The notes beneath the pieces are model-generated. The model was not told the DNA's origin, searched no databases, and worked only from the letters and a program-made list of their open reading frames with translations. A stretch of 64,000 nucleotides of DNA from Vermamoeba vermiformis (Eukaryota), in the NCBI GenBank assembly GCA_045837725.1, contig JBEWZL010000073.1, positions 1-64,000 of the forward strand. The letters are read 5' to 3'. Below, in pieces: positions 12,759 to 39,807 of this stretch (position 1 is the stretch's first letter; each line of letters starts with the position of its first letter). The translations under genes were made by a program, and so were the position numbers.

Positions 12759-13934
12759 TTACGGATTGAGCTTCAAACGGCTCCTGAACGGATCGAAGAT
12801 GAATTCTGTAGCGCCCAATGCCTCAGCAGTATGGTGCAGGCCCAGTTCGTTGATGAGTGCCTTCTTCAGATTCAACACTGACTCAGAATCCAAGTTTGCA
12901 AGCAGTAGGCGACATCGCGCGAGTTCATCGTCGCCTGCCTTATGAACGATATTCCGTTGATTAATATAGAATTTCGAAGCCAGTTTGCGCCAGCTGTCGG
13001 GTTGTTTGACGAGATCTTGCGCTACTGCCTCGAGTTCTGATTGTGTTAGCGTACAAACTCGCAGTATTGTCGGTGTGATATCTTTCTTAATGGTTAGTTG
13101 TGGCTCATTAAGAAAGCAGGCTGCTATTTCGTCTTCAAAATTGATTAGTAACGGATGTACATAAATTGCTTCGGATCAAGACCGCGTACCTCGCTCAGAT
13201 CTTTTAACGATGGCGATGACTTCGTTCTGTTTGTCTAAGACCGGTGTTCCTGCTTCTACTGCCGAGCTTGCCTCGATCCCGAATATTGTCGAGCCTTTGC
13301 CCTCACGAACTTTTCCATCGATCCACTTGAGACCTTCTTTGTCATCTAAAGCCAGTAATTTAACTTCGTCGCCTTCCGAAACTTTGGCGTCGTAACGTAT
13401 GGGCATTGGAGCGTACTTGAGTGTTGCAGCTTCTAGCATCGGATCGGAGTTCAGGCGGAGCGTAGTGCAGTGGTATGCTGAGCAGAGGACGGTGGCGTGG
13501 AATACAGTGTTCGGATCGGACAAAAAGGAGAGCTCAGCGGTAGTGGCGTCCAAAGGAAAGGTAGACCGAACTGTGACCAGCAGATCTTCTTGAAAAAGAA
13601 AACCAAGACCGTAACTCGTGCCATTTATCGTTATATTTGCTATTCTCGAGCACTATGAATAAATAATTAAAATAAATAAATAATGCAAATGAATAAAATT
13701 GTATTTTAACGTACAAACGAAGATGCTTCTACTTCTTTACAAGGTAGCGCGCTACTTAATTAATTAATAAATATTTAATGGCTAATTATAATGCATTTTA
13801 AACCTGGAAAAGTAATAAGGTTCTGTTGCAAAGAATGCATTTTGGCGTGCTCTGCTCTTCTCAAGTAGCTGCTGTATCTTGAGTCTTTTTGGGCTTGGTT
13901 GTGCTAATTCTGGTTCATCAAGTAGGCGCTTCAT
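12759..13934 (-). CDS. Trypsin-like fold plus death-like domain, copy 2 (inverted paralog of 2867-4038)
   Basis: DATTAELSFL, RYDA..SEG..VKL.ALD.KEGLKWI, VAQDLVKQPDSWRKLA and the identical C-terminus DPFRSRLKLNP*. Both copies begin MKR. Confidence 0.7.
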
Positions 13935-14431
13935 GATTAGGTGTTGCATTTGTTCTTGCAAATAAAAATAATGAAACCGCTTTTTGGGTTAGTGGACTGA
14001 AGGGAATTAGTGAGACTGCAGCCACATCCAGATTGTGTTCTTCTTCAGAGAAGCTCTTCTCCATTTGTTTCAATCTCAAGAGAGTATCACAGTAATGCTG
14101 CTCCAACAGCTATCTTAGTCTGCTGTTCAGTCATGAGGAGAAAGTCTTCCTGATGTGGATGCCCAATGAGAACCTGTGACCATGTGAGGAAAAATATAAC
14201 TAGGCACTTCAGCCCATATGGTCCATCTGCTATTAGCATTTGAATTCTTCAGGCCTGCCCACTCCACAGTACAGGAGGAGAGGGAGGGGGGGGGGGGGGC
14301 CTAGCTCGCCCGAAATTACTGCATGCACCACAACTTATAACACTTATGTATTTACAGCAAGGAAGCACATGCTTTTATTTTATTCTTATGTCTTAGACAG
14401 TAACAATTCACAGTTCTTATTTGTAGCAGAC

Positions 14432-15330
14432 TTATGGTTCTGTAGCTTCAAAGAGTTGAGCCATTTGCTCAATTGTTGGATTTGTTTGGTTGTTTAAGAC
14501 TGTCTCTAACTGAATATTTAATTAGTAGTGTTCCATAAATCTTAATGATCTAGTACCATTCTTGCATAGTAAGGACTTTGAGGACCAATGTGCTTGACTT
14601 GACGCAGTATTCCATAAGCTAGAGTGCTAGCATGGCTTTCATATCTCTTGGCTCTGCCAAAATAAGCAAACAAGTTGACATAACATTGACAAGCTTCTTC
14701 ATTGAAGTCAGTCAGATAGAGCAGGTCTAATAGGTAGCCTAATGCTTCTTGAGCTACATCTCCTTCACTCCACAACACTGCTCTTTGAAGCATCTTGATG
14801 CAAGCATTACGTGAGGATGAAACTCTGAGACCAAGCAAGCCAATGTATTGTACTGCTGAGGAAGAGAGTCCATTGTGATCACATGCTTCAGGATGAGTGA
14901 TGTTCGCAAGCCTAGTAGCACACAATTCCAAGTCACAATTCTTCAGGGCAAAACTGAGAGCTTCAAGTTGGTGCTCTGTCTGCATCAAGTTGACAGCAGC
15001 ACCAGCATGCAATACAGCAAACAAGGCTTCTCTAATTGTGCCGTCTCCTTCTTTAGCCAATGTCTCTATTAAATGTTGAGGTAGATGTGGATGTAGAGTT
15101 GGAGGGAGATTTGAGTAAAGAGAAGCAGATAAAAAAAAAAAATTTTTTTGGGGATTTGTTTTTTTTAAAAAAGGTCACAGATTGCACCCCTGAATGAGTT
15201 AATAAATGACATTGACTACTTGTTTTGGCTTACAATGCAAAGGAGGCAGTAAGTCTGCCACTTGATCTGCTCTTGACTCATATGAATGCTCAAGGCAAAG
15301 AACTAAAGTTGCAAGCTTGGTTTGGTACAT
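14432..15330 (-). CDS. Unknown helical protein (possible frameshift at homopolymers ~15130-15170)
   Basis: Main exon is ORF 14542-15060, open up to ~15130, with plausible GT/AG-bounded first and last exons. No recognised domain. Confidence 0.45.
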
Positions 15331-15460
15331 GTAGTGTTTGTTAGGTAATGTGGAGTTAATTTCACTTGGACAGGACGAAAAAAAATTGTACCTAATATTT
15401 GTTATTAAATTAATTAGAATAAAAAGTGTATTTGTGGTAAAAAGCCAACATAAAAAAGAA

Positions 15461-15531
15461 TGCACTCACCGGGAATCGAACCCGGGTCGCCCGCGTGGCA
15501 GGCGGACATCATGCCCCTAGACCATGAGTGC
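15461..15531 (-). tRNA. tRNA-Gly(GCC), copy 1
   Basis: Acceptor GCACTCA/TGAGTGC, anticodon loop CT-GCC-AC, T arm GGTTCGATTCC, downstream T-run terminator. Confidence 0.95.
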
Positions 15532-15652
15532 CTTGTTGAAATTTTCAGATCAGAATCTAACGGGGTCTTTTGTAAAAAGTTGATACAAAGTTTACTAACA
15601 AGTAAATTGTTTGGGCAAAGAGAGGCAAACCATAAATTGCTATTCTAGTTGC

Positions 15653-17270
15653 TTAATTTGCTTGTTCTCCATGCTTAGCAGTGTACTCTTCATACTTGTC
15701 CAGCTCTTCCACAGGTACTGAGGGATGGACTTTGCCAAATGTTTGCAAAATGTCTGCCTAGTCAATTCTATTACTCAACAGTTACTTTCAATTGAATGCA
15801 TACTTTGTTCAGAGGTCTGATAAGCACTTTAAACATCTGATTATCAATGTCTAATAAAGACATCATCAATGCTCCTGCATCATTCTCTTTGCATGGAAGT
15901 AATACCCTTCAATGTTTTAATTATTCATTTTGTATAGCTTTTCAGAAAGTTATACCTTTTCCCAGAATACTGTCTTGAAGGAACTTCTCTGAAGTACTTG
16001 GACAGTACTAATTCTCTTACTGATAATCCAGTCAGAACAAGTGTACTTTGTGCTGAGCACTTACTAGGAGCTTGCAATGCTTCATGGCAGGCCAGTGATA
16101 TATCAGAGCCAGAGAAGCCTTCGGTCATGCATACTAATGTTTTAAGACTGTCTTCATCCAAGTCACATTTTTCAGCAAAATTGATCCTAACAATAGTATT
16201 AGATATGCATATGAATGTGTTATGTTGTGTCACATACTTCAGAAGTTCTCTTCTTCCTAGTTCATTTGGCAGTGGAATGTGAAGTTTCTTCTGGAATCTA
16301 CATGCAACTTTTTTTAATCATTTTGATGTTACGTCAATTGTTTACCTTCTAAGTACTGCCGGATCTAGATCCCAAGGTCTATTGGTGCAGGCTACAATTG
16401 TTGCTTCAAGGCAGGCTGTCCACATTAATACCATATTTTTCTGTAGTGTTTGGCTTACAGTCCATTTGAAGCAGAAATTCATTCTTAATTCTTCTAGTGT
16501 TCTCATCTTCATTATCTGTTCTTTTCATGAGCAAGCTGTCAATCTCATCCACAAATAAAATTGCATTTTTTTCTCTGGCTTGTTGAAATGTCTGCTTGAT
16601 CAACCTTTCACTGGCACCAAACCATTTGGATAGTAGATCAGCTGAAGTAACACTTAGCACTGGCAATTTGGCTTCTGCAGCAATGGCCTGGACCAACTTA
16701 GTTTTTCCAGTTCCTGGTGGCTGCAATGAAATTAGAATGGTTTGTAATGAATATTTGGCACTTACTCCATATAGCAGAATCTTGTTCCATGGCTTCAAGG
16801 TGGAGTACAAGTAGGGGAATTTTCTTGGAAGGATAATAGCTTCAAGTAAGATTTGCTTTGCTTTTTCCAGACCTGCAATATGCTTCAGCTGAAGAAGTTC
16901 TGGATTCACACTCGTAGCTTCTGCCTCTGTAACCTCCATTATGTCTTCATGTGCTTCATCTTCTTTGGGAAGTTGCTTTGGTGCAACGGATGTTGGCATG
17001 GGACTGCTCAAGTCTTGAATTCTAAGTTGGTAAGTTGAAATTAAAATAGCAATTGAGTGTTGAACAGAGTCTGAGCTGAAGAGATTTGCTTTTGAGAGTG
17101 AAGCAGCAGCTTTGCCAAACATTCCCACTGCATTTTGAAACTGGCCAGAATTGTCTAGTGCAAGGGCAGACTGAGCACTAAAAAGAACTTAGCATGTTAA
17201 ATAGGTATGGCTCTTACCATGAGATAGCCTCATTTAGATGTAGTAGCAAAATGCTGCTTTTATTTGACAT
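15653..17270 (-). CDS. Divergent VPS4-like AAA+ ATPase (MIT-like N-terminus, AAA, Vps4-type C-terminus)
   Basis: PWNKILLYGPPGTGKT (Walker A split by an intron), ILFVDEIDSL, RRIKNEFLLQMD, TEGFSGSDI, beta-domain-like LPCKENDAGA, and C-terminal 'PSVPVEELDKYEEY'. Confidence 0.85.
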
Positions 17271-17351
17271 TGTTTTCAAATGATTACACTAAAATCCAAA
17301 AAAAGTACAAAAAAAAAAATATAATATTTGGTTTTAACTCAAAAAAAAGAA

Positions 17352-17422
17352 TGCACTCACCGGGAATCGAACCCGGGTCGCCCGCGTGGCAGGCGGACAT
17401 CATGCCCCTAGACCATGAGTGC
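17352..17422 (-). tRNA. tRNA-Gly(GCC), copy 2
   Basis: Identical 71-nt body to copy 1. Confidence 0.95.
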
Positions 17423-17485: not shown

Positions 17486-19841
17486 CTAACTAGTAAAAGG
17501 CTTGGGCAGTTGAGCTAAAGGGGCAACTGTAGGCCTGCCATGAGCACATGCAAAAGGGTTCTTACATTGCTTCAATTCATTCACCAAACTCATGCATTCT
17601 TCCCTTGAAAGTTTATCTCCAAACATTATTGCACCTATTTCAAAAGTTAATTTTAAGTTGATAATTTTGGATTTTTTAGCTCTTACCTCTACAAGCTTTG
17701 CTGGCTAAGACCCTAGAGACAGCTTTGGGTCTGGTAATCTTCAATCCTCCATTGCTTTCCAATTGCTCTGCATACTCCAACAAATCTTGAACTTCCAATG
17801 AAACTCCCAGCACTACACCCACTTGTGTTAAATGCAATGTGTACTCCCTATAATGGCCATATTAGTCATTTAATATTAATAATAATATATAATAATTAAT
17901 TGCCTACCCATTAGCACTATATAACTTATAGTCCCACATGTAACGGCCAATCAAGTTCTTGTACTGCTCCAGCCAAGTGAATTCATGCAATGCAATGGCT
18001 TGGTGAATATCAACTTGTCTAGTTTGGATATTAACTTCTTGCCCATTGATTCCATAGACCTGTTGTTGCAATCTTTCCAGCAATACTCTTTCGTGGGCAG
18101 CATGTTGATCGATTGCAAAAATGAGATAGTTCACCTTGGTAACTAACATGAATTAATACTGTTAAATGCTTGTAAGCTGCTTACTAATGAATTTGCAATC
18201 AACTTGGCCAATCACTTCCATGTTTTCCAATGTTTGTTTGTCAACTTTAAGTTCTGATTGCACAGTGACCGGTGTTTGAGGCAAAATAGAGGCCCTAGTT
18301 ACTGCAGAGTGCTTCTTCCAGCCCTATGTCAATAAGTAGATAAAAAAAATCACAACCTATTTCCAACGTACTTTGATTAATTGATCAACTTCAAGGGGCT
18401 TGCCAAGAACTTCTGATTTTTGAACTCTACTATTTCTTGCAGCAATTGTAGGAATTTCAATGTCTTCTTCATTATTTTCTGGCTTGGCATGAAATTGTAT
18501 TTCTTCTGGGAATACATCTTTCAAAAGCAATGCAACTGCCTCCCAATCTTTGATATCTACTTCAAAGTGGTTTTCAGAGGGAATAAAGTCCACTGTGAGA
18601 GGATGCAGCCATATATTCAAGATGTATCCTGGCTCCAATTTTTCTTTTCTGTGTTTTCTGAATTCATCTGCAATCAGTTTGCTCAGCTTCAAGCTCTTTA
18701 CAAATCTTCTATTGATGAATAGATATTGGTGCACCTAACAAGGTTAAGACATTGAAGTTATATGTTAATTACCTTTGAATTGAATCCTTTTCTGCCTATC
18801 ACTCCAGAAATTCTGGGCAAGTTGACCATGTCAAATTCTTCGTCTCCAATCATCTGTTTAAAAGCATTGCTCAAAGAATTCCTTCTAGGAATTTCCAATA
18901 CTTTGCTGTTCATATCCTTCAGAACAAATACCACGTCTGATGAAATGTTTAGTACTGATTTTTTTGTCGATATGTAGTACTTTGATGCATTAAAGATATT
19001 CTTTCCAATTTCTTTTTAATGCAAGCAATATCTCTTTGATTGCTAATGTTTGTAGTCCTGACTGGATAGTTTTTCAAGAAATTGAAAACCATCACAGTTG
19101 TTCCTAGCAACATTCAGATTAACATTAAAGACTCATTCCTTTACTTACCATTGAGGGCTGTGCATGGTTGAATTAATGTAGCTGCACCATTCTTCAGTTT
19201 AACATTAGTTATTTACATAATCCTAATTATCATTACCTCTAGAACTTTAAAGTAAGATTGACTGCTTTGATGGTGCCTAGAACGAATTTCAATCCTGCTG
19301 ATTAGAGAAAGGCAGGCTGGTTTCATTAGTTCAATTATTGTAAGAATTTGATAATTACCTAGAAATTGTCCATGATAGCCATAAGTCGTTAGGGAATTCA
19401 AATCATTTTCTGAAGTGAGTTTGGAGGTGACTTCAGGCAAAAAATAAGTCCATGTTAATAGGAATGGGACTCACCATATGAATTTCCCAGCTCCTTGATA
19501 TCTTCATAGCAAATGCCAGCTCCATTATCTAACTCTTATTATTATCAGTTTTTTTATTTAACTTACTTACCCTTGACTTCAAAATACAGCTGCTCTGGAT
19601 TTGCTCTTATTCTGGGTTATTATGATTTTTAAAATTCAAAGCTTACATTACTTGAATCATAGTAGCACCGGCATCAAGACCTAAATATATCCAGTTAAAT
19701 TTCTATTATAATGCCTTTTGAATTATAATTGAAAAGGGTTAACTTACTGTTGAAAACTAGTTCTTCAATTGCCTGGGGAATTGAGGATAAGTGATAGCTA
19801 GCATGAACTTGGCTAGCAAGTTGATGAGATAGAGGCTTCAT
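17486..19841 (-). CDS. MLH3: MutL-gamma endonuclease subunit MLH3
   Basis: GHKL N-terminus (AIEELVFNSLDAGA, TYGYHGQFL), endonuclease motif DQHAAHERVLLE, KACRGAIMFGD and PFACAHGRPT. Confidence 0.9.
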
Positions 19842-19903: not shown

Positions 19904-21344
19904 ATGACCAACCCAGCGTCAAAGATTGCTAGGTTCAAAAGAAAGCTAGAAGGTGCTGAAGAAAAACCAAGCAAGAAGCAAAAAGTAGAAGATAAGAAGG
20001 AGAAGACTCAGTCAAAAGAAATTTCAGAAACTAAAAAGAAGACTGCCAACAATAAGAAAGTCATTACACTGGAAGAAGACACTACAAATAAGCTGAATTT
20101 TGTATTGCCAGAAGATGATGACTTTGTGGAGCCAGTCAAGCCAGCTCCCAAAAATTCCAAGGCCAATCTTCCAAAGCCAGTCAGAACTTACTCCAGATCT
20201 GAACGAGCTAAGAGCAGAAAGAGGCCTGAAGATGAAGAGAAGGAGAGATTGCAGGTGTTGAGCAAATTCAAGAAGAATGCAGCGCCTACCAGCCAGGCCC
20301 AGACTCCTCTCCAGACTCAAACTGCTGAAACTACTGATGGTGTTGAAAAATTTACAACTGAGGTTCCAAAGCTATTAACAGTAAGTCTCCATATTTAATA
20401 TCCCTGGAAAAATAATTTTAATAATTATGTTAGGATGAGAAGCCAGTGACTTCCAAGGCAAAACCTTCTCCCTCCAACAAAGGAATTTTTGCGAATGCTA
20501 AGTACTCAAAATTAATTCAAAAGAAGGGCTCAGTCAAAGGTACTTCATATAATAGCAATTTAAATACAACTTGTTTGGCTGATTTTGGATCTGCAGATCC
20601 TGGTCACAAGGAAGAAAACTTCATTGACTCAACAGAGCAATACAATCCTTACAACTTGGCAACTACTGCTCCTAATAACAACAACTTGGAGAAAGAGATG
20701 AAGACTGATTCAGTTGAAGAAAAGCCTGCAGATGAGAAAAAACAGCCCAAGAAAATCAAATCAAAACAGACTTTGGAATGTAAGTTTACCAATGTTGAAT
20801 TTATATTTTTTGAGCTGATAGTTGCATCAGATGTTCGTAAAACACGCTCTGAGTTGCAGGAGAAGATGGCAGGCTCCCAAACTAAATTGTAAGTGCATCA
20901 TCATTAAAATTAATTCTAAGTAATAATTCCAGGAAAAAAGACATTATGAGATTGATCAATGCCATTAATCCAAATATTTTGTCTGAGTCAGCTGAAGTTG
21001 AACTAAGAGCCACTCAATCATGTGTTGAAGCTTCAAGCAGAGTGTTGCAGGTAAAATTTTTCTTAAAATCTACAGAATCCTGATGTTGTTCACAGTCGCT
21101 TAGCATCCTCACTGATTCTTTGGCCATGGCTCAACCAATTGACATTCCATCAGATCATGACATGTTCCATGGCTCAGTGTTTGCTTACAGCCAGGCTCTA
21201 GCTCCCATCCAGTCCAGATCTGCTCCCAATCTACCCTTCAATGAAAGTTGGTCTAATCAGTTTTTGCCCATGGACTCAATCCAGCTTGAGACTCCCAAAA
21301 AAGATGATGATGAAGTGTTTGATCCTTCTGTTTTCTTTAACTAA
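19904..21344 (+). CDS. Lys/Glu-rich orphan protein, probably nuclear
   Basis: Consecutive spliced ORFs 19889-20398, 20446-20892 and 21120-21344, with NLS-like KRK and PSKKQK. Confidence 0.7.
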
Positions 21345-21470
21345 GCAGTGTCCAAAGAGACTCTGACAACATAGAAATAAACCTGCTACTCTATTTCATT
21401 TCAATACAACATTATTAGACATTGGGTTTAACTTTGCAAAAAAAATTGGATAAATCAAAATAAAAAAGAA

Positions 21471-21541
21471 TGCACTCACCGGGAATCGAACCCGGGTCGC
21501 CCGCGTGGCAGGCGGACATCATGCCCCTAGACCATGAGTGC
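21471..21541 (-). tRNA. tRNA-Gly(GCC), copy 3
   Basis: Identical body; the upstream flank is slightly diverged. Confidence 0.95.
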
Positions 21542-21635
21542 CTTGTTGAAATTTGCAGAGCAGAATCTAATGGGGTCTTTTGTAAAAAGTTGGTACAAAG
21601 TTTACTAACATAATAATAAAATGGTGATTCTATGC

Positions 21636-21717
21636 TTGGGCAAAGAAGGGCAAATCCTCAATCATTCATTGCTATTCTTGTTTGCTTGTTCTCCATGCTT
21701 AGCAGTGTTCTCTTCAT
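21636..21717 (-). pseudogene. Duplicated fragment of the VPS4-like 3' end
   Basis: tttgcttgttctccatgcttagcagtgttctcttcat matches 15657-15693 with one mismatch; the similarity extends back toward the tRNA flank. Confidence 0.75.
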
Positions 21718-21791
21718 GCTTCCACTGAGGTGATGTTGAAGTTTTATTTGGGAATTACAACGATACAACATGCAAGTTGCAACGGTAGGTT

Positions 21792-24484
21792 CTATTTGCC
21801 AGCCTTTGAGTGTAGATTTACAGCACGCTTTCTCTTTCTTGTCTATTTTGAGTTTAAAGTTAGATTAGGTTGCAAGTTGTGGATAGATAGTTTAACTTAC
21901 TGGAGCAACTGCTGGGCTGACATGGAATTTGAGTGGAATACCCTCCAATGCGTACACAAACACTTGCAAAGGAGTTAGCTCTGAATAGATGAGTTAATTA
22001 GTCTTTAACTTTGAATGAAGTGTACATACCTTCAGGGTTGAAAATGTCAATGTGCTCCAAGGTGTCTTCTTGTGCCAAAATATTTTCAACTGTGGCTGCA
22101 TAGTCCTCTTCTACCCTTTCTGGCACTTGATGATATTCAGCTCTTGACTCTTCATGCGACTGGCTAATGGGCATAATGAGAGGAGCAACATGTTCTTCTT
22201 CACCTGGAATATCCACCTTCTCACAGATGAAGTTCTCTCCAGACATGGAGAATGTAGGAACAATGGAGGGCTCTGGTTCAATGGCCTCAACGGCTGATTG
22301 CAGCTCATGTCCTGGCTCATTGTGCGCTGATGATGCATGTTGGGGGACTTGAGGGTGCTCCAACTCTGCAGAATTGCATTGTAGCGGTATATTCTCTGGG
22401 TCTGCCTGATCATGAGCTGATGATGCATCTTGGACTAGTACTTGGGAGATTTGAAGATGCTCCAATTCTTCAGTATTCCATTGTTGCAGTAGTTTCGCTT
22501 GGCCTGCCTTATCGTGAGCCTCCACCATAGTCTCCCCTGGTTTCACTTCAGGTTCATCAGAGGTCTCCTTCACATCAGCAGCTGTCCCAAGAGGCTCCAA
22601 TGTAAGTTCGACCAGTTGTTCTGGCAACTCTTTGGTTGTAATCTCTGGTTGATTGGAGTTGCTTGGCACCATTTCGATTTGATCTGTCAAAAGGATGCTA
22701 TCTGCGGTACTGCAGGAGGTAGAACATTGTATGGTAAGTGCCTCCCCTTTAAAAATAGTTAGAGTTTGTTGTTTGACTAAAGTTGAATTGTCTTACCTAG
22801 ACATTCCTTGTACTCTGCAGGCAGTTCTGTTGCTTGTTCATGTTTCCGTTCACCAAGTGTGCCACTTTCCTCCATCTCCTCATCTTGATGACGTAATGTT
22901 GAAGGTTCTGCAGAGCATTGATGTTCATGCAGAATAGTGACTTCACTGGTGTCTGTTGTGGGCTCTAGAACAGGAGTACCTGCAGCATCACGTTGGTTCT
23001 CTGGAAGTGCTGATTGTTCAAAGTTGCCTTGAAGGCTGCTTGTGCCAGGCTCTTTCTCTAGCAATTTCACGTTGCCATCATCTGCTTTTTCTACAATACA
23101 TGCATGTTCTTGGGTATCAATGTTGCTCATGACAATATCGGAGTGGGGAGTTGTAACTGCAGTGTCCAACACTTCTGTGGGGAAATTGATCTCCTCCAAA
23201 GGCACTGGTTGAATGAATGGCTTCAAGTTGACATCAGTAGCTTGTTGAGGCACAACTAAGTCATGATGAATTTCTGTATTCACAAGGGTTGTTGCCATTG
23301 ATTGTTCTTCGCAAGAAGTAGATGGACTAACGGTTTGTTGAGGCATTACTACAGCATGTAGATCTGCTTCATTCACAGGAGGTTGGGCTGCCATTGATTG
23401 CTCTTCAGATGAAGTAGATGGAGCAACATTCTGTTGAGGCATGACTACGGCTTGAGGAATTTCTTCGTCCATTGGTTGGATTACTGCTGTTGTTAGCTCT
23501 TCAGATGAGGTTGATGGAGCAACAAACTCTATTGCTGAATCTAACGATTGAGCAACAGATTCCATGCTAGGCAAAGTAGGCATTTGAACTTCCAGCAATC
23601 CCGTGTTCAGATCTTCTTCAGAGGCAATAGTGGCAGTGGAGATAGTAGAGTCCTCCACATCTTTGTCAGTTTTCAATGTGATTGCCAGTTCAATAGGTTG
23701 GCTGGGTTCTTCTGCTGGGATCGTTGGAGGAGCTTGCTGCACAGAGACAACTTCCATGCCAGTAGTTTCATTGGCTTCCAGAACAGCTGTTTGCTCAGTA
23801 GAAGGGTGGTTGGCATCAGCAGTGCAATCAGTTTCCATAGGCACGTTGGCTTCAGCAGAAATCTCAGTACTTGAAGTTGTTGGGGCAATCTCTTCAGCAT
23901 TTGTTTCGATAACATTTGCATTGTTTCCTGGTATATCGTGAACAGCACTAATACTTTAAAGTGATTAGTTTATGCTGTACAACTGTATTTTGTAACTACC
24001 TAGTGTCCACGACAGGAGGAGGCAATAGAGATGGTGCTTCATGATGTTCTACCAGTGCTGGTTGAGGTCTCTTAAATGGGTTACTTGGTACTGAAGCAGG
24101 GACATTGAAGTAAAAAGTTGGCCTGGCAGTGAGTTGATCCGGTTCTTTGAAGTTGTTACTAGAGGGTCCTTCCTCCAAAACCTTGGGTGACTCTGCCTCT
24201 TGGACATAGTTTGAATGAATAGGAAGATCTAAACTAGCAGTGCGCTCCAAAGATGTAGAAGTAGAGTTTGGTCCAGAGTAGAAATGCAGAAAAGTTGCAG
24301 CTATTTTGGGTTTTGCAGCACTTGGAGCAGTAGAGTAATTGGCTGGTGCAGAGAGGATAGGTCTTGGCAACACTGGACTTGGGGTAGTTGCTGGAATTGA
24401 AGTCTGGCTAGGAGTTTGGAACTTGCGCATGATATTCTGAATCAAGGACTGCATATGGTTGGAGGAAGGAGGATTAGAGCTCAT
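21792..24484 (-). CDS. Large acidic, low-complexity orphan protein with internal repeats
   Basis: ORFs 23996-24484, 22777-23844 and 21998-22690 joined by short introns. Last exons LTPLQVFVYALEGIPLKFHV and TRKRKR (NLS-like). Confidence 0.7.
23240..23525 (-). repeat. About three tandem ~32-codon repeats (V.PSTS.EE...VVMPQQ)
   Basis: VAPSTSSEEL / VAPSTSSEEQSMA / VSPSTSCEEQSMA in ORF 22777-23844. Confidence 0.8.
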
Positions 24485-24551
24485 TTTCTGGCAGTTGTTG
24501 TAATGTGACCAAAAAAATTATTAAATAAGTTATAAGAAAATGTTTTTTACA

Positions 24552-26055: not shown

Positions 26056-26079
26056 GTTACCAATTAATGGATTATTTAT

Positions 26080-29000: not shown

Positions 29001-29162
29001 TAAATTGCCAAGCCAATCCTAGAACAGGTTAGCAATATTTTACTTTGTACTTATAATCCGTACTTTGGTTTGGAGAACACCAAACTGGCATAAACCTAAA
29101 TGTTGGTTAGCATAAATTTAGAATTTTTGCTTTCCTACCTTTTCACTGTCTTGATCCGTCAT
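26080..29162 (-). CDS. MSH5: MutS-gamma subunit MSH5
   Basis: [12 protein letters not shown]...[60 protein letters not shown] and IIDEFGKGT. Confidence 0.95.
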
Positions 29163-29198
29163 TTTGAGTTCAAATGAGAAAATAAATCCAAAAGAAAT

Positions 29199-30342: not shown

Positions 30343-30418
30343 TTAAAACAAATAATTCAAAAATTCAAAAATTGGACATTTTTCATTTTTGGTAAAAAGA
30401 TTAATCACAACAACAAAA
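30343..30418. promoter_or_regulatory. 76-bp divergent intergenic at the strand switch of the island
   Basis: ATGs at 30342 (-) and 30419 (+). Genes to the left are mostly minus and genes to the right mostly plus. Confidence 0.5.
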
Positions 30419-30842
30419 ATGGCATCTGATATGGAAATTGAGCAGCATCCCCAAGTAGATGAAACATTGATAGTGTTCCAAGGCAAGGCAGAAAACTTGC
30501 TTCAAAAAAGGCAGAAGTTTATTGATGGTAAGTTTAAGCACCTTAACAAATCCACCCAGACTTCTGATCCTTTGAAAGACCTTTCCTCTAATTTGGAGAA
30601 GATATTCCATGGCTACTTGGAAACCTTTGCCTCCAATTTCCAAACCAGATCTGATCAACTCTCCCATTTGCTATCTGCTTACAATGAGGAAGCTGTGTAA
30701 GTTAAAATTCGAATGAAGCCCCAAAGCAATGCTAAATAGATATAATAGGAAATGTGACATGTTAAAGGCCAATCTGCAAGCTGTCCAAGAAAAGACAGAA
30801 GACCTCTACACTGAGCTGCACAGGGCTCTCTCTGCTCAATAG
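30419..30842 (+). CDS. Small coiled-coil protein, candidate SYCE2-like
   Basis: Two exons: MASDMEIE...YNEEAV|KCDMLKANLQAVQEKTEDLYTELHRALSAQ*. The gene is secure; the family call is tentative. Confidence 0.5.
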
Positions 30843-30930
30843 CTCGTTTAATATTGCTGGATTTTTATCCACAATTTATTTTGTAGAAAAAATTGTTAAT
30901 TTTTCTCAATCATTATTTTAATTGTAATAA

Positions 30931-31553
30931 ATGAACATGGAAAAACAAATCAGTTCTCTGCAACGACAGCTTTTTGAGAAAGATCTTCTCATCCAAAACC
31001 TTAGGAATCAACTCCAGCAGCTGCAAGAATTTAAAAATCAGGTCAGCATTGCATTGCAGAGGTTACCTCAAGAAGATGGCCCGGCAACAATTCAAACTTG
31101 TCATGAAGCAATTGAACCAACCCCAGCAGTGGAATGCGGAATCTGCTTACTAGAAGTTCAAGGTATGGAAGTCTTTTTTTCAAAACACAAGTACCTAACA
31201 CATAGATAATAGAGGATGACATTATGTTTGCCTTAGATTGCAAGCATGAATTTCATCTTGGTTGTTTATTCAAGTGTCTGGGTATGCTCAAACATGTCAA
31301 TCAAAACAATACGAAAATTAATCCCTCTACAGAAAGCAGGTTCATAGTCAATCAATGTCCTTTGTGCACCTCAAGAATAACTCCCGAAATATGCAGAGAA
31401 ATTTCAAGCCAGTAAGTAAATTGCATATTAAATGGTAAAAAACACATTTTAACTTCATTAAATAGGTGGAAAGAGATACTCAATGAAGAAAAAAAGCTAT
31501 CTAAAATCTTGTTGGAAGAATTGAAGAGTGAAAATTCGTCTGATTTGTGTTAA
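30931..31553 (+). CDS. Coiled-coil plus RING-H2 E3 ligase-like protein
   Basis: CGIC...CKHEFHLGC...CPLC across exons, preceded by a Q/L-rich coiled coil. Confidence 0.8.
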
Positions 31554-32517
31554 ACTCATTTGTAAAATTTATTGTAAATATTTTTGAACAACGAAAATGA
31601 CAACAGAATCAGTTCTTATATGAGAATACATAGTAACATATACATGTGATAAATGTACTGTTGGCTAGGTCAGCAACTTCAGCCACCAAGAAAAAACCGC
31701 AGAAAACTCAAAAAAAATAGGGTCAATTATCAGGATTCAACCTTGACAAAGGGGTAAGAGATTTATCTATTTGAGCAATGCACACTTATCACCTAGTCTT
31801 CAGGTTTGATACATCAAATATGGCTCTTGCAAGTGTTCATGGCTGGATCCAGGATGTCAAACCTGGATCTCTCCCTTTTTTTTCTTAGAAAGTGCTTATT
31901 CAATCAATTGTAAGTTTAATCAGTGATATTATGCCATATTAACAGCTGGCAATATTGCTAGGAGCCTAAATAAGGCCAGCTAAGAATCGCCTGTTATTTT
32001 GTAGCTACAAACAATTTTGCCCAAATTTATTCATGGATCAGCATAGCTGGCAGTTTCACGTGTGATAGTCCAAGGCATATGACATAAAATACAGAAATTG
32101 CAACAGCAATCAATTGCCAGGATGTAAAGTTATAAATTTATTAAAAAAATGAAATATTTCAACTTGGAGTTTTTTGTCTTACCCTGATTTTTCCTATTGA
32201 TTTGATACATCAATATCATTTAAACATCAATAATATCATTTACTGTAACTAATGAACTTGGGAGCTACGTTTATCTAAGTAAGACTTCAACCAATTGCTA
32301 TAAAGTTACCAATATTAATAATACAATTATATTCACCTACTAAAATCCGTTTTATCACCATACTAATTTTCTAACAATGTAAGTCTGCTATGTTTGGGGT
32401 ACAATTTTTGGCTTAATAAATCGTAGTTAAAAATGAAATGCAAACGTGAGCAGAATTATATTTCAAGTAAAAACACAACACAAGTTAGACACATCCTATA
32501 ATTTTGTGTAAGACTAA

Positions 32518-33831
32518 ATGATGGAGCACGATATTGAGGATGTAGAAAGTGTTTCAGGGTCCCAAAGCTCATCATCAGGTTCCTACAAAGATGAGTATGG
32601 TGAATTGTTTGAGCTTGATGAGCCTATGTCTTTAAGTGCATACATGAAGGCTTGGTGAGTACACAAATAATAATTATAATTTAATTTTAATTTACTTATT
32701 TAATTAATTATTATTATTTAATTATAATAATTCTAATAATTATTAGGAATTTCTTTTCTTAATTTAGTTAATAGTAACTCCATACCCTTTAATAAAATAT
32801 GTAATAATTTAATAATTATTTATTAGTTATTCAATTGATGTTCCTCAAGATTCAGAAATTTTCTGCAAATTGCAGCAGTACCAAGTTGTACAAGCTTGTG
32901 ATGGACATGCTAATCTTTTTGGAGTAAAAACCAATCAAAAACGATATTTTGCAAAGTATGCCTCAAAAGAACAGTATGAGGCAGAGAAACGAAGTCATGA
33001 AGTGTTGGATCCGCTCAATTGTCCTTCCATTATCAAACTGGTGGATGCAATTCCAATAGGTGCAGGAGGCATTATTATAACACCTATGTATGATCGATAC
33101 AGCCATGGTACATTTTACTATCATCCCAAAAGAGTCATGACATGCTTGTTGCAGGTAAATCTGGATTAGATTTGGCTCAAAATCTTCTGACTGTAACCCT
33201 TGTAGGCTCTTAAAGTCTGCCATGATAATGGTATAGCACACAGAGATATCAAGCCACATAATATTGTTTGGTACTTTGCTGATAGGCGGTGCAGAACCCT
33301 TGATTTCTTTCTCACTGACTTTGGCATTGCCTGCTTTGATTTTAAAGAATATGAAAATAAGACTATACAGAACATGCCTGGCACATTAAGATATTATTCC
33401 CCAGAGAGGCTGCGGGGAGAAATTCCACCTGATCCACGTGTATGTGACATGTTTGCTGCTGGAGTAGTTTTCCTTGAATGCGTAAGTCATTATTAGAAAA
33501 ATGAACTCAAAACAAGCTCATTTATTCAATACAGGTGATGCAAACAAGCAAACATGCCTTTAAAAATGGCACATTGGACGAAATTTATCATGTGCTGAAC
33601 AACTTTGATGAAGTAGTAGGTTGTCTATTGTTGCCCCATGCAGCTGATTTATTGAAGAAGATGCTGGAAGTTGATTACAAGAAAAGAATTACTGTCACTG
33701 AGGCATTGGAACACAGATTCTTTAGTGAGCCCCACTGCACTCGCATTGAATACTCCAGAGCACACCCCACTAGAATGCCAGACTATTTGATTTTCACTCC
33801 AGCCTTTCTGATTGAACATAACCTTAAATAA
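32518..33831 (+). CDS. Divergent Ser/Thr protein kinase
   Basis: FAK...E, HRDIKPHN, TDFG, GTLRYYSPE, DMFAAG and KRITVTEALEHRFF. Confidence 0.88.
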
Positions 33832-33871
33832 ACTAATCCTTACAAATGTGCTCAGAAAATAATTCCTTGGT

Positions 33872-33957
33872 AGAAAGCGGGTTCAAGTCAATCAATGTAC
33901 ATTGTGCATCTCAAAATTAACTCCAGACATTTGAAGAGAAATTTCAACCCAGTAAGT
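33872..33957 (+). pseudogene. Decayed duplicate of the third RING exon
   Basis: Aligns with 31331-31417, including the donor gtaagt, but carries an indel and substitutions. Confidence 0.75.
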
Positions 33958-34030
33958 GATCCTTAAAAATAATTTTAAAAACATTTTAATTATTTTTAAA
34001 TATTTTGTTCTTATTTGAACAACTCTGAAA

Positions 34031-37000
34031 ATGACCACAGAACCACGATTCAATTCAGAGCTTGATATCCAGTTAGAAGGGGGCCGTACTGCAACTCAGA
34101 ACAGAACCTCTACAACTGCCAATGAGGCCATTTATATTATAGCCCTGAATGAAAACAGAGCTAAAGAGGTATACTTGTTATTAACGATATTCTGCCTTAC
34201 ATATATTTCAGGTTGGATTTGCTGCTATCAATCTGAAAAATCCCGTAGTACACCTCAACCAGTACTGTGACAGCCATGCATACATTAATACGCTGACTTC
34301 CTTGGTAATTTACCAACCTGTTGAGGTAAGTCTAAAAATTCTAGCTACTGTAGCCCTCATCTCAAATTATTTTTAGATTATTCTGCCAAACACTGCTGAA
34401 AATACAGAACTTTATCATACAATTAAGGCTCAGTTCCCCAATGTCTCTATTGTTACAGTGGCAAGAAAGTACTTTTCTGAAACAACAGGTATATTAAAAC
34501 ATCATGTAATTTCCTGGGTTAATTTAATATTTTAAGGGTCTCTTCTTATGCAACGACTGTCTCTGAAAGATAATGTGATTGATTCAGCCCTGTCCCTTAA
34601 GTATCTGGCTTTGGGATCCTTCTCAGCATTGATAAAATATGTTGAGTTTGTGCAACATTCAACCTTTGCCTCTCACACTCTTAAGGCAAGTTTACATTGG
34701 AATCATAATTAACAATTAACACTATATTTTTAGATTATTCTTAGAGGCTGTGAAGGCATCATGTTTATTGATGCCAATTCAATCAGAGACTTGGAAGTGC
34801 TATTTAACAAACGTACTGGCAAATCAGAGGAGTCTTTATTTGGAATATTGAACCACACTAAGACAGTGCAAGGAGGTATGTTATTCCTTTATTATTGCTC
34901 TTTGTAGTGTATTAATTATCCACAGCTCGTCTTCTTAAAACCAACTTGCTGCAGCCCCTCACTGACTTGACCACAATAAGAGTCAGACAACAATGTGTTT
35001 CTGAACTGTTGAACAATGAATCAATGTTCTTTGGATTAAGCAAAGCATTGGAAAAGTTCATTGATTTGGACCACTTAAGTGAGTAGACTTTATTATTCTA
35101 TAATGAAAAATACTAATTAGTTGCAGTTTCTCAGCTTGTTTTCATTCCAAAGAAAAGTTCTGAGAAGACAGCTCAAAATGCCATTCAAAGCGCCATTGTC
35201 TTGAAGTACAATTTAGAGCTGGTGCCTGGCCTAGTTCAAAGCATTCAAGACAGCCAGCATGAATTGTTTGGAACTATTCTCAAAAACCTGCAACATGAAG
35301 ACATCAAAGAGATGTACGACAAAATTACTGAAGTCATAGATGACTCTGCTACTCATGAGAAGGGTGCTCAGAAACAAGCAATGCAGGTACACAGGCTGAA
35401 AAAAAAATGATTTTCAATTTTTCTGAGAAATATTGTTTTGCAGCACTCATTTGCAGTGAAGCCAGGCATCAATGGTCTATTGGATGCAGCACGACAAGTC
35501 TACACTGAAACTATTGAAGATATTTATGCCCTGGCCAACAGCTACAGAGACCAACATAATTTGATGAGCCTTAAAGTGCAATACAACACTAAACGAGGAT
35601 ATTTCTTCACTGTGCCTGGCTCTGTCAAACACATTCCTGCCTTATTTGGGCATGCTTCAATGCAAGGCAAGAAGTGGATTCTATCTACAGACCAGCTGGA
35701 AACTCTCAACATTAGGAGCAAAGAATCGCTGCAAGACATTTACTTGATGACTGAACGAGTCATTGAGGGATTGATGGCTGAGATTAGGTACATGACAAGG
35801 TTGTAGTTTTCATTCACTAATTGATGATTAGAAAGAGACTTTCCACCATTTACAAAATCTCCGAGTCAGTTGCATTTTTGGATATGATATCAAGGTAAAT
35901 CAAATCCACAGTGACTTTTTCAATTAATTCTATACTAACTTCAATCACTATATAGTCTGGCCACCTATGTTACTCTGAGCGATGCATGTGGTAAGTGAAT
36001 ATTACTTATACTATTTTCTAATATTAAACTTTATCAAGTGGTTCCTGAGTTTACAGAGGATGGACCATTGGCTATTAGACATGGAGTAAGTTCTAAAATA
36101 ACTGTAGCTATTGTTATTAAAATAGTATTCAGCGCCATCCTATCCTTGAAAAGTTAGGCATTGATGTTATTCCCAATGACACATATGCTTCTGACCTAGG
36201 CCAAACATTTCATGTGATCACTGGTCCAAATATGAGTGGCAAATCAACTTATTTGAGCCAGCTTTGTTTGCTCACCATAATGGCTCACATTGGTAAGAAA
36301 ATAACACATAACATTACAGATACTAATTTATACTTTAGGAGCACATGTTCCAGCTCGTTATGCATCGTTTAGAATATTCAGAAGCATATTTACAAGTGAG
36401 TGCTCACATATTCATGCATTATTAAACTAACAGTGGAATTATAGGAATAGGAACGGAGGACTCTATTGAAGCAAACTCCAGCAGTTTTATGAAGGAGATG
36501 AAAGACATTGCATTTGTTATAAAAACTGCTTCTCATAAGAGTTTGATTGTGATTGGTAAGTCAATCAGCTTTTCTCCTCGTTTTTACTTACAACATCATT
36601 TGTTAGATGAACTAGGCAGAAGCACTTCGAACAAAGATGCCCTGCCAATCTGTTATTCTATCAGTGAGTACTTGATCTCATTGAAAGCCTACACCTTCTT
36701 TGTGACTCACTACCATGAATTGGCAACAAATCTGGCCCAGCTTTACGCTAAGGTCAAGACTCAGCATTTCTCTGTAAGTAACGTGCAATGTGCAAGAATT
36801 AATAATCTACTGCAATGTAACAAATAGGTTGATAAGAGAGAATCCAAAATCAAGTTTTTGTATCAGCTTGAAGATGGAGTTTGCAATGAAAATCTGTATG
36901 GTCTTGCCATTGCTGAGACTGCTGGATTTCCAAAGGCTCTGTTGGAGAAGGCTCACAAAGTCGCCATTGAGCTGGCTAATCAACAAAAGAAGAAAGAAGT

Positions 37001-37154
37001 GCAGAACACAACTGGTGCCAAAGCTAAGCAAGCCATCATTGAGAGGTTGTTGCTGCTGCAGAACTCCACACTGGATGAAGTTAGTCTTAAAGCCTATGTT
37101 GCCGATTTGAAGAAAAAGTTAGCAGACTGCATTGCTTGTGAAGCAGAAGAGTAA
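34031..37154 (+). CDS. MSH4: MutS-gamma subunit MSH4
   Basis: IIALNENRAKEVGFAAINLK, SLFGILNHTKT, FAVKPGINGLLDAARQ, ITGPNMSGKSTYL, SSFMKEMKD, DELGRST and FVTHY. Confidence 0.95.
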
Positions 37155-37474
37155 ATAATGTGTAGCTTTAATAAACTCCCATCTTACATTCTTAAGCTAG
37201 CCCAAGGCTGAATTCTTTAGAATCTCTAACCTTAAGATAAAGAAATATCCTAGCTATTGAACTCTAATTTTAGATAGGATACTATACTATGAAAGATGTT
37301 TGGCTTTGGATTAATAGAATTAACTAAGATGGATAAGGATCATCTCAAACAAGAGAATATAATATCTGAGTAAATGTATTACCATTAAACTTCATACAAT
37401 TTGCTACTTAGTAAACTTTGTATCAACTTTTTACAAAAGACCCCGTTAGATTCTGATCACAAAATTTCAACAAG

Positions 37475-37545
37475 GCACTCATGGTCTAGGGGCATGATGT
37501 CCGCCTGCCACGCGGGCGACCCGGGTTCGATTCCCGGTGAGTGCA
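37475..37545 (+). tRNA. tRNA-Gly(GCC), copy 4
   Basis: Identical body on the plus strand, followed by TTCTTTTTTT. Confidence 0.95.
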
Positions 37546-37666
37546 TTCTTTTTTTGGGGGTTTTCATTTTATTGTAATTTATTTTCAATTTTTTTCTTCC
37601 TGTTTATTGAAATTAACCACATTACCTAACAACACTAAAGCCAAAAGTAGTTCATCATTAATACTT

Positions 37667-37810
37667 TATCTAAATTCAGCTTCCCAAATAAGACATGCAG
37701 CTCCAAATCCCATCAACTGTAGCATTAAATTAACCTCACCTTATGAAAGAAAACTTACAATCAGTTGGTCAGTGTTGTCCCAGAGAATGTTTGAAGGAGC
37801 CACATTGCAA
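37667..37810 (-). pseudogene. Duplicated fragment of the adjacent kinase-like gene
   Basis: NVAPSNILWDNTDQLI|intron|LMGFGAA mirrors DVAPSNILWNKEDELI|LVGFGAS at ~38230-38345, then stops. Confidence 0.65.
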
Positions 37811-37920
37811 AATTAATTTTATTCATTTTTGGGAAAACAAAATAGCACTTGAACGCTTAGTCAGAAGTATAACCACAGTGCAAAACACAATCATCACCTT
37901 AAACTCATTGGAATTGAATT

Positions 37921-39807
37921 CTACCTGAAGGAACTTGCCATCAACCACTCAAGTTTCTTCTTCACTTTATCAAGAGAAACCCTTTCAAAAGGCCTTTGTT
38001 TTGTCTAGTAAAATACATTACTAATAGGATGAAAAAAGCAGCTTGGTTACCATAGCTTCAATCAGCACAAGTAAGTCTACAGATAATTGCCCCCAATGCA
38101 AGGCAAAATATTCAATTACTTTGCCTGCACTGTACACATCTGATGCAATAGTAGGGTTATATTCTGGAGGTGAGAAGGGCTCATCTCCTGGAAGCAAATT
38201 GACCCCAGGATGGTGATTAATGAGGCCTGATGCACCAAATCCAACCAACTGAATAAACATTAGCAATAATCAATAGAATAGTTGAAAAACTTACAATAAG
38301 TTCATCCTCCTTATTCCACAGAATGTTTGAAGGAGCCACATCACCATGACGGAGCCCTAATGAATGCATAGTTTGAATAGCAGAGATCAACTGCAGAGCT
38401 GTAGATATGATGTCTTTCTTCTGTGGCTCCTTGTTGTATACAGGCCAAGCCATAGCCACTGCTGCTCTATTCATAACAGACATTGAGTCTGCATACAGAA
38501 ACATTGTGAAGTCAAGCAACAATGGGAAGTGAGGCTTGCCATTCAGCAACTGGGCAATGAAGAACTCAAACCAGAGGAGCATGGGACCCAATGATTTCCA
38601 AGGCTCCTGCATCTCTCCACCCACCAACAGCTTGCCAAACACTGGCTGTCCTTCAAAGTCACCATAGCCAATGAACTTTGATGGTGAAGATGCAGCCCAA
38701 ACTAGGTTGTGGGCCTTACAAAATGACACTGGCAAATCCATTGCAGGCTTGCCAAGTAAATGCTCATGTACATAGCAATCTAAATGGTAGCCCAATTCAG
38801 CATCTCGGTGGCAGCTCAGAAGTGCACTAATAACTTGTGAAAATGCTGCAGGCACAAGTGTTTGTGATTACCTGAAGTCAAAACACAAAACAGGAGCTTC
38901 AATGCAAACAGCAGAGGGATCTTTTAAATACATAAATGCTGTCTTAGCTGAGACTCTCATGCCAGGGTCCTTATTGCACTAGAGAAGCATTAGAATCAGA
39001 GTTGAAAGTGGATTTTAAGTTAGTACCAAGACATCAATGAGCTTGTCAACAACAGGATCAGCTCCACAGAGTTTAGACCATTCCTTCAAGACCAATCCTG
39101 CACACAGCATATCATGGGCTGGCTCATACATTTCTTTGTGGGGCCATGACCCCCACATGGGCAAATCTCCGTGAAATCGGCAGGCACTCCAGTCAACAAG
39201 CTGATTGATATGTTACTTATGTTTAATAAACGAAGGACTTACTTTAATTTGATCACGCTTGCCAATGAATATTTGGCGCTCTTAGAGACCCATGCATTAC
39301 TCCTGCCTCATGAAACCCAGCTAATGCTCTGAAAAGCTGCGAAGCCAACTCAAGAATTGGCATGTTGGGTGGCAGCTTGCGTGAGTAGTGTCTGACTTGG
39401 TAAATCCATGTTGAGTCATAGGTAGGGCGATAGCCAAGAATTTCAGTGACCCCAAAGCATCCATACATTTCCAGCAGAAAGAACATTTCCTTAGATCGCC
39501 TATCTATTAATTTCATAATTAATGTAGTCTCAAAGCTAATGTTTTTAGTGCTTGGAATTTCATGCACATTAAACTCACCTGAACGGAATATGGCACGGTC
39601 TTGATCTGCTTTGCCCATACAATCACTTGAGTGGTAAGGAAGCTCTGCAACATCTTCTTCTTTTAATTCTGGCATTTTGAATTGTGCGTACGCTCCTTCT
39701 TTAAAAGCTTGATCTAAGTAGTAGTGAGCAAGGCCCTCAACTTTGCCATAGAACTTTGCAGACGACGGAAGGTACGAAAATAATAATCCTTTCGCTCGTG
39801 AATTCAT
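37921..39807 (-). CDS. Tandem two-domain kinase-like (likely pseudokinase) protein
   Basis: Domain 1 has MHGSLRAPN and VDWS; domain 2 has RHGDVAPSN and VGFG. They join in frame through a 45-nt intron near 38825-38870. Confidence 0.7.

Follow-up and report, generated by a model that had tools for sequence, protein, structure and literature searches.

Why do three genes of one meiotic crossover pathway lie close together in a stretch of DNA that has lost most of its CpG dinucleotides? The question is raised by 64,000 nucleotides of a contig deposited as Vermamoeba vermiformis (JBEWZL010000073.1, positions 1 to 64,000 of the forward strand, assembly GCA_045837725.1), a stretch which will be called the window and in which MSH4, MSH5 and MLH3 are found inside a CpG-poor block. 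An earlier note, made from the letters of this DNA, had proposed that the block is a co-regulated meiosis supergene, silenced in vegetative cells. Here we describe the composition of the block, its genes and the DNA and RNA reads that cover it, and we propose that it could be a long-standing, repressively CpG-methylated and normally silent domain of the Acanthamoeba kind that holds core meiotic genes, a reading that we regard, on the sequence evidence, as evenly poised between right and wrong.

The CpG-depleted domain

The CpG-poor block had been placed at ~13,900-39,300, and we were able to reproduce it. Over 13,951-39,170, the interval for which the block statistics were computed, there are 200 CpGs (7.9 per kb), 28 of them within four tRNA genes, and the observed/expected ratio (o/e) is 0.22, compared to 1.24 (48.7 per kb) and 1.08 (53.5 per kb) in the flanks. 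Roughly four fifths of the CpGs have been lost from the block. When 2-kb segments were used, o/e ranged from 0.14 to 0.34 for all starts between 14,001 and 38,001 and from 0.92 to 1.42 for starts at 1,001-12,001 and 39,001-62,001. The left edge falls at ~13,750-13,980, where a CpG-normal gene has its 5' end, and the right edge at ~39,170-39,260, where a kinase-like frame of normal CpG content has its 3' end.

Other dinucleotides are informative about the kind of decay. CpA and TpG are in excess in the block (o/e 1.34 vs 1.06/1.13 in the flanks, and 1.30 vs 1.04/1.18, respectively), and GpC is the same inside and outside (1.28 vs 1.29/1.27). TpA is not raised (0.67 vs 0.85/0.72 in the flanks), and the CpG loss is therefore not like that left by repeat-induced point mutation. 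A loss of CpG together with an excess of TpG and CpA fits the signature of 5-methylcytosine (5mC) deamination. This decay is not confined to one class of sequence, as CpG o/e is alike in predicted coding DNA (0.19) and in the remaining block DNA (0.26). Furthermore, when the block was divided into 300-bp bins with the tRNA genes excluded, o/e was at or below 0.5 in 84 of 85 bins, with a maximum of 0.74, and no CpG peak was seen at promoters. The CpG-specific decay spans promoters, gene bodies and spacers, as would be expected of a repressive 5mC domain, and within the block CpGs survive only in the four tRNA genes and at a few codons under constraint.

The genes of the window have many short GT..AG introns (41-55 nt) and are separated by spacers of only 25-200 nt. 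Gene models were obtained with our own splice-aware finder and by reading the sequence by eye; because of the short spacers the finder merged neighbouring genes, which were split by hand and by region. Exon counts are approximate, and the models are partial for the MLH3 N-terminus, the C-terminus of the AAA ATPase gene G2, and the two kinase-type genes G9 and G11 (Table 1).

MSH4, MSH5 and MLH3

The presence of MSH4, MSH5 and MLH3 within about 20 kb, also claimed by the earlier note, was borne out: the three identities are supported and the genes, with 7 to at least 16 exons each, all lie within 19.7 kb, so that functionally related genes, all three from class-I crossing-over, are adjacent here as in a gene cluster.

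In MSH4, Pfam recognised MutS_V (2e-21), MutS_IV (8e-10) and MutS_III (2e-9), and the Walker A sequence GPNMSGKS and the motif DELGRSTS are present. An all-against-one HMMER search with the domain-IV exon gave 590 proteins at E values up to 1e-3. Four of the 13 clusters of matches examined hold a member named MSH4 or msh4 (P0133, P0273, P0280 and P0132), one has the UniRef name 'MSH3' (P0153) and the other eight are generic or nameless; a protein-cluster search with an MSH4 exon returned only MutS_IV clusters, which carry no paralogue names. A FastTree phylogeny of 127 rows was built from the MSH4-exon matches of at least 600 aa, five shorter ones added by hand, the MSH5 matches of 780-1,100 aa and the two models of the window. 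In this tree, which holds no MSH1, MSH2, MSH3 or MSH6 sequences, MSH4-type and MSH5-type rows separate with a support of 100. The window MSH4 falls into a clade of 12 rows (support 93) that includes the amoebozoans Soliformovum and Planoprotostelium and a JGI 'MSH4', and also into one of 41 rows (support 96) that includes msh4-named chytrid proteins. No PDB match at 1e-3 was found for the domain-IV exon, although the PDB holds MSH2, MSH3, MSH6 and MutS. Judged by the named matches, by a tree built without those paralogues and by the PDB search, the gene is orthologous to MSH4 and not to MSH2, MSH3 or MSH6. Relatives exist in environmental DNA, as metagenome gene fragments are 77-92% identical to one MSH4 exon and near-identical MSH4 exons (P0124, P0125 and P0278) are carried by contigs of 194-223 kb. 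In the 200-nt spacer that immediately precedes the start codon of MSH4, positions 33,856-33,957 repeat, with 82.5% identity, 103 nt of the RING-H2 exon of the gene G8b (31,315-31,417).

MSH5 likewise has MutS_V (8e-36, in the ATPase exon) and MutS_IV (1e-4), with MutS_III at 2.5e-7 under the cut-off of Pfam itself, and it carries the Walker A sequence GPNFSGKS and the motif DEFGKGT. Its homologues were searched for among 5.8 billion proteins. In the 120 matches listed, all the names that specify a paralogue are MSH5 or 'mismatch repair protein 5', with the sole exception of P0061, called 'MutS protein homolog 3' in UniRef. The top match, P0001, is a MutS of bacterial type in which one stretch is duplicated, and the 786-aa relative P0003 is colinear over its residues 89-779 with 28,752-26,095 of the gene. 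In the tree, the window MSH5 falls inside the 50-row MSH5 side with a support of 100. A metagenome scan with the MSH5 ATPase exon found no close relative among its 19 loci, all of which are MutS genes 48-59% identical to it that we take to be bacterial. The nearest relatives of MSH4 and MSH5 fit the proposal of the earlier note that the DNA is probably amoebozoan. In the MSH4 and MSH5 exons scanned, which included some of the short N-terminal ones, there was no match to MutS_I, the N-terminal mismatch-binding domain. One base pair at an MSH5 exon border is probably misassembled, and the reading of the MSH5 exon in the DNA run X1 (see below) matches the relatives better.

The third gene, MLH3, matches DNA_mis_repair (1.4e-7) and MutL_C (1e-5) in Pfam, and the frame at 17,904-18,152 contains the endonuclease motif DQHAAHERVLLE. 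The MutL endonuclease motif has the form DQHA(X)2E(X)4E, and its presence presumably excludes MLH1-type proteins. Against the PDB, the C-terminal exon matched the yeast MLH3 C-terminal domain (6shx_B, 6.4e-14) far ahead of MutL (3e-4) and PMS1 (3e-3), and by these scores the gene is closer to Mlh3 than to Pms1/PMS2 or bacterial MutL. No Pfam match to the N-terminal GHKL ATPase was obtained with the two N-terminal exons scanned; by eye, these exons contain ELVFNS and TSKL...TYGYHGQFL, which resemble GHKL ATPase motifs. A word-based homologue search with another MLH3 exon found no homologue, as none of its 333 candidates scored.

DNA and RNA reads

The DNA run X1, which is possibly the source of the assembly, covers the block at an even depth (362-636 in block bins, two tRNA bins apart, vs 422 in the flank), and this depth is continuous across both edges mapped. 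On the two sides of the right edge, 28 of 30 bins have coverage in the water metagenome X3. No loose ends of X1 or X3 were listed at this edge, and among the contigs listed none was shown that bridges an edge by itself. More widely, 26,001-36,000 is partly contained in water or aquifer metagenome runs from two studies, X3 with 0.31 of the sampled words and five others with 0.05-0.18.

For parts of the block, X1 also contains a second version with about one third of the depth; in 76 nt of the MSH5 ATPase exon, for instance, there are six differences at ~36% of the depth. The suggestion of a haplotype- or mating-type-specific block does not agree with these data, as an even depth and two allelic forms in one sample mean that the block is neither hemizygous nor haplotype-limited there. 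Six of the seven X1 variants in MSH5 exons are synonymous, including all six in the ATPase exon; in the orphan gene G5, two of four change the residue. MSH4, MSH5 and MLH3 are, as far as can be read from their predicted frames, intact, and the mostly synonymous MSH5 variants, the open MSH4 frame and the metagenome relatives suggest that they are maintained by selection.

All or nearly all X1 contigs are 1 bp shorter than the window at 27,830, 28,185/28,188, 33,509, 34,333 and 39,257, and 8 bases shorter at 37,828; the window probably contains small assembly errors at these places. X3 contigs match up to 29,204, 37,000 and 39,777 and then diverge into unlike sequence, which may reflect a related strain with another arrangement or chimeric low-depth contigs.

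With regard to expression, no RNA run was indexed as containing 26,001-36,000. Two of three RNA runs with the same species label (X10 and X12) were mapped to 21,001-41,000, and only 21 and 23 reads were placed, respectively, mostly as partial matches at tRNA genes. On the ~18 kb of the block outside the tRNA bins there was no whole read from either run, and bin depth did not exceed 0.06. The flanking end of the PIKfyve-type gene had a depth of 0.4 in X10 and 1.8 in X12, and its 49-nt intron joint was crossed by 7 reads. These RNA data lend weak support to a low expression of the block.

Other genes of the block

The earlier note had also counted about ten divergent or orphan genes between the crossover genes. 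Nine further protein genes are found in the block, and only four of them lack a recognisable domain; in the other five, one AAA ATPase, one RING-H2 protein, one kinase, one kinase-like and one HEAT-like gene, a domain or repeat can be recognised. All features are collected in Table 1.

Table 1. Positions of the CpG-depleted stretches and of the genes of the block within the window
Feature	Position	Strand	Description
CpG-depleted domain	~13,930-39,170	.	o/e 0.22, TpG/CpA excess, sharp edges
Second CpG-depleted stretch	1-1,000	.	7 CpGs, o/e 0.22; runs off the window
MSH4	34,031-37,154	plus	MutS domains III, IV and V; model of 16 exons, 738 aa, no internal stop
MSH5	26,080-29,162	minus	MutS domains III, IV and V; at least 16 exons; introns of 41-55 nt
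MLH3 (MutL-gamma subunit)	17,486 to ~19,841	minus	MutL_C, DNA_mis_repair, DQHAAHERVLLE, CAHGRP
G1	14,542-15,174	minus	210-aa open frame; orphan, no family
G2	15,925-17,270	minus	MIT-like + AAA + AAA-lid ATPase, VPS4/katanin/spastin/fidgetin group
G4	19,904-21,344	plus	lysine-rich, ~418 aa, no family; head to head with MLH3
G5	21,998-26,055	minus	acidic, low-complexity, ~1,186 aa, internal repeats, no family
G7	29,199-30,342	minus	HEAT-like, ~249 aa; stop 37 nt upstream of MSH5 start
G8a	30,419-30,842	plus	coiled-coil protein, ~123 aa; head to head with G7
G8b	30,931-31,553	plus	coiled coil, then RING-H2 finger
G9	32,518-33,831	plus	divergent protein kinase (HRDIKPHN, DFG)
G11	38,018-38,867	minus	kinase-like gene (HGDVAPSNILW)
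tRNA-Gly(GCC) copy 1	15,461-15,531	minus	7 CpGs retained
tRNA-Gly(GCC) copy 2	17,352-17,422	minus	within the 216-nt spacer from MLH3 stop to G2 start
tRNA-Gly(GCC) copy 3	21,471-21,541	minus	
tRNA-Gly(GCC) copy 4	37,475-37,545	plus	

The best solved relatives of the AAA ATPase G2 are an archaeal VCP-like ATPase (7e-36) and VPS4 (1e-31); the value for fidgetin-like 1 is 3e-26. The RING-H2 finger of G8b follows the pattern C-x2-C ... C-x-H-x2-H-x2-C ... C-x2-C and spans one intron. The kinase exon of G9 had no PDB match at 1e-8, and Pfam gave nothing at or near its cut-offs for G1, G4, G5, G7 and G8a. A protein-cluster match for G1 (best score 0.85, mixed bacterial families) was rejected. In G5, tandem repeats that are 70-74% identical, at 23,242-23,524 and 22,312-22,519, encode a serine/glutamate-rich motif.

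The packing of these genes is very tight in places. The start codons of G4 and MLH3 are ~62 nt apart, and G7, MSH5 and G5 are consecutive on the minus strand with stop-to-start gaps of ~37 nt (29,162-29,201) and ~25 nt (26,055-26,082). The G7-MSH5-G5 spacing, together with the tRNA gene in the spacer between MLH3 and G2, may raise the question of read-through or joint transcription. As a candidate for a shared promoter motif, the best 8-mer, AAACACAA, is present in 4 of 10 upstream stretches and has 9 matches in the window; since 10 of 100 shuffles reach that number, it was rejected.

The four tRNA-Gly(GCC) genes are identical, with 7 CpGs each and a conserved upstream stretch of ~65 nt, and all four copies found in the window are in the block, with none in the 38 kb of flanks. 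The first and the last lie 1.5-1.7 kb inside the edges in opposite orientation, with 81% identity over 282 nt. At two of the tRNA genes, the depth of X1 rises to 1,570 and 2,187, vs ~360-640 elsewhere, which indicates that the tRNA unit is multi-copy in the genome. Apart from these units, a comparison of the window with itself disclosed no dispersed repeats. Pfam found no transposon domains in the block frames scanned, and scans of viral contigs with the AAA and kinase exons found no relative, a weak test since exact 8-residue words were required. Accordingly, the transposon or viral content of Acanthamoeba-type 5mC domains was not found here.

Flanks and second depleted stretch

The earlier note had described the flanking housekeeping genes as CpG-normal, and this is confirmed for the exons of a PIKfyve-type lipid kinase, ribosomal protein uL2/L8, a CH-DH-PH RhoGEF and a GT34 glycosyltransferase; lineage-specific genes are present in the flanks as well. 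The PDB matches of uL2/L8 come from a spread of eukaryote ribosomes, and 11he_L8 is the top one only through a repeated stretch in its chain; they give no information on taxonomy.

The beginning of the window (1-1,000) is as depleted as the block, so that the genome is a mosaic and the 25-kb block one depleted domain among others. The frame at 423-824 (minus) in this second stretch has a paralogue with normal CpG content at 2,180-2,689, 1.5 kb away, to which it is 26% identical. Another pair of paralogues crosses the right edge (38,217-38,867 and 39,253-40,050). As the members of these two pairs are only 26-34% identical, they are too divergent for CpG-to-TpG changes to be counted. A gene spanning the right edge was also considered but is not proposed, since no alignment with G11 was obtained for the exon taken to be the C-terminal one of the outer kinase-like gene.

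Just to the left of the block, an inverted pair of paralogues at 3,089-4,040 (plus) and 12,757-13,677 (minus), 66% identical over 967 nt, brackets ~8.7 kb; both are CpG-normal and belong to no Pfam family. A 'death domain' suspected in these paralogues (3,640-4,038 and 12,759-13,175) had no support in Pfam.

Discussion

The geometry of the CpG footprint, together with the amoebozoan-like MSH4 and MSH5, makes a long-methylated and normally silent domain the most economical reading of the block. According to it, a domain of a compact, intron-rich and probably amoebozoan genome would have been CpG-methylated for a long time in the vegetative cells that transmit the genome, the methylation covering promoters, gene bodies and spacers alike, and deamination of methylcytosine would have eroded CpG to TpG and CpA until o/e came down to ~0.2. 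Coverage of both promoter and gene body goes with silent genes in amoebae and other protists (PMC12344493). As the MutS-gamma and MutL-gamma genes are intact within a domain of this sort, MSH4, MSH5 and MLH3 would be off during growth and would be jointly released at the start of a rare sexual cycle.

The simplest competing explanation is that the three genes are passengers, that is, that the domain became depleted through methylation for a reason other than meiosis, that the trio is there by historical accident with each gene regulated separately, and that the neighbours have nothing to do with it. We consider this possible but rather improbable, and several observations that weigh against our own reading speak for it. 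Depletion affects about 41% of the window (25.2 kb and 1 kb out of 64 kb), and the depleted stretch at 1-1,000 carries an unrelated gene, so this type of domain is not specific to meiosis. In family and homologue searches, no match to a known meiotic family was obtained for any of the nine neighbours, and no shared motif was found upstream of the block genes in ten upstream stretches. On the other hand, by our own rough estimate the chance of this triple would be ~1e-6 (three named genes among ~12 adjacent ones of ~15,000) and that of any triple from ~ten class-I genes ~1e-4, and two of the three genes encode an obligate heterodimer; the odds argument is weakened by the very many windows that were surveyed. 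Other points against a methylated silent domain concern its content and its expression. It contains four tRNA genes that are presumably active, and no transposon or viral content was seen in it, which leaves the targeting rule of such a domain unexplained; published methylated genes are mostly transposon or viral (PMC12344493). The RNA test is a weak one, with a flank depth of only ~1x and samples whose growth state is unspecified. Moreover, 15 of the 21 X10 reads and 19 of the 23 X12 reads are only 95-99% like the window, and those of the PIKfyve-type gene carry three differences within 25 nt, which indicates that the RNA comes from another strain and that reads over faster-evolving genes may be lost.

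The remaining explanations are all less probable. A mosaic of CpG o/e is the classic sign of genomes with gene-body methylation of the animal type, and the block could then contain steadily transcribed, body-methylated genes between flanks that are unmethylated and inducible. However, promoters and spacers are depleted as much as exons instead of being spared, the flanking ribosomal protein gene is CpG-normal so that the depleted class is not that of housekeeping genes, and there are no RNA reads in the block, weak as this test is; these facts make the explanation very unlikely, and gene-body methylation is absent from the amoebozoan and other protist methylomes studied so far (PMC12344493). 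A foreign or artefactual segment, be it an endogenised giant virus, another transfer, a contaminant or a chimeric join, would agree with the presence of two kinase-type genes and several orphans, as methylated islands of Acanthamoeba and Amoebidium are often kinase-rich viral insertions (PMC12344493, PMC11244446). Nevertheless, the trio has the intron-rich structure of the flank, with 7 to at least 16 exons and the same 41-55-nt GT..AG introns (49 nt in PIKfyve), MSH4 groups with amoebozoan MSH4, the two viral-contig scans, for what exact-word matching is worth, brought no relative, and both the continuous X1 depth and the X3 bins astride the right edge argue against a join, so that we see very little chance of a foreign origin. 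A mating-type-like region, in which an old recombination-suppressed segment under another regime of mutation and repair would have recruited meiotic genes, might account for the two diverged forms inside the block in X1, but it appears improbable in view of the even DNA depth with both forms in one sample. In addition, a loss of GC-biased conversion would not deplete CpG alone and leave GpC at 1.28, and no mating-type gene was recognised.

Among the specific forms that the favoured reading, a methylated silent domain with meiotic genes, can take, the boldest would be that the core interference-sensitive crossover machinery is kept as one unit in a facultatively silenced, DNA-methylated domain, so that a single epigenetic switch licenses class-I crossing-over in a cryptic sexual cycle, and that the nine co-resident genes include lineage-specific meiotic factors. 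We put this forward tentatively, as a proposal that is more probably wrong than right, and the clustering may be functional, with one switch, or accidental. The supergene of the earlier note stands therefore in part: the class-I genes are intact and the CpG loss over promoters and bodies has the signature of 5mC deamination, but the depletion is not specific to meiosis and the neighbours could not be tied to it.

In amoebae, sex has mostly been inferred only from gene inventories (PMC6263441, PMC5381635), and the block offers a concrete locus at which methylation, chromatin and transcripts can be tracked during starvation, fusion or encystment to catch a sexual stage. If our reading were true, the role of 5mC in protists would widen from the silencing of transposons and viral genes to keeping a conserved host programme in reserve, and the block would provide one of the rare eukaryotic examples in which the genes for a single protein machine are clustered. 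Even if the clustering were accidental, the locus would still illustrate cleanly how CpG decays on the scale of a domain, within boundaries that are sharp to a few hundred bases.

When the block is compared to known systems, the closest by gene content is the class-I crossover pathway itself (MutS-gamma, MSH4-MSH5, and MutL-gamma, MLH1-MLH3), as all three pathway-specific subunits are encoded here, with the ATPase motifs in MSH4 and MSH5 and the endonuclease motif in MLH3. To the best of our knowledge, these three genes are unlinked in model eukaryotes, whereas here they share 19.7 kb, and a literature search on their linkage or clustering gave no report among the matches listed. With invertebrates such as Ciona, in which gene-body methylation is mosaic, promoters are CpG-normal and housekeeping genes are the depleted class, the block has in common a bimodal CpG o/e along the chromosome, but its promoter and housekeeping pattern is the reverse.

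The nearest likeness is found in protists with repressive 5mC. In Acanthamoeba, Naegleria and Cyanophora, 5mC is located on young transposons and on silent genes, over both promoter and gene body (PMC12344493), where it coincides with H3K9me3 and H3K27me3, and active genes have no gene-body methylation (PMC12344493; PMC12695648); silent regions are marked by 5mC in N. gruberi and A. castellanii (PMC12695648). Like the methylated islands of A. castellanii, N. gruberi and C. paradoxa, the block shows its signal over promoters and gene bodies while other genes are unaffected, although in those species methylation has been measured and lies mainly on young transposons and giant-virus genes, whereas the block is known from CpG decay alone (PMC12344493; PMC12695648). 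The hypermethylated giant-virus insertions of Amoebidium and Acanthamoeba are also sharply bounded multi-gene domains, of 5mC there and of CpG decay here, but no viral gene was found in the block, and its genes are intron-rich and of host ancestry (PMC11244446, PMC12210455). In fungi, islands of contiguous methylated host genes of non-viral origin have been described (Bewick et al. 2019, through PMC12344493), and these resemble the block in being made of contiguous non-viral host genes and differ from it in lineage. What sets the block apart from islands of the Acanthamoeba type is its content, intact core meiotic genes and tRNA genes, and the new element would be precisely this, that both MutS-gamma subunits and the nuclease subunit of MutL-gamma are found there with tRNA genes instead of transposons or viral genes.

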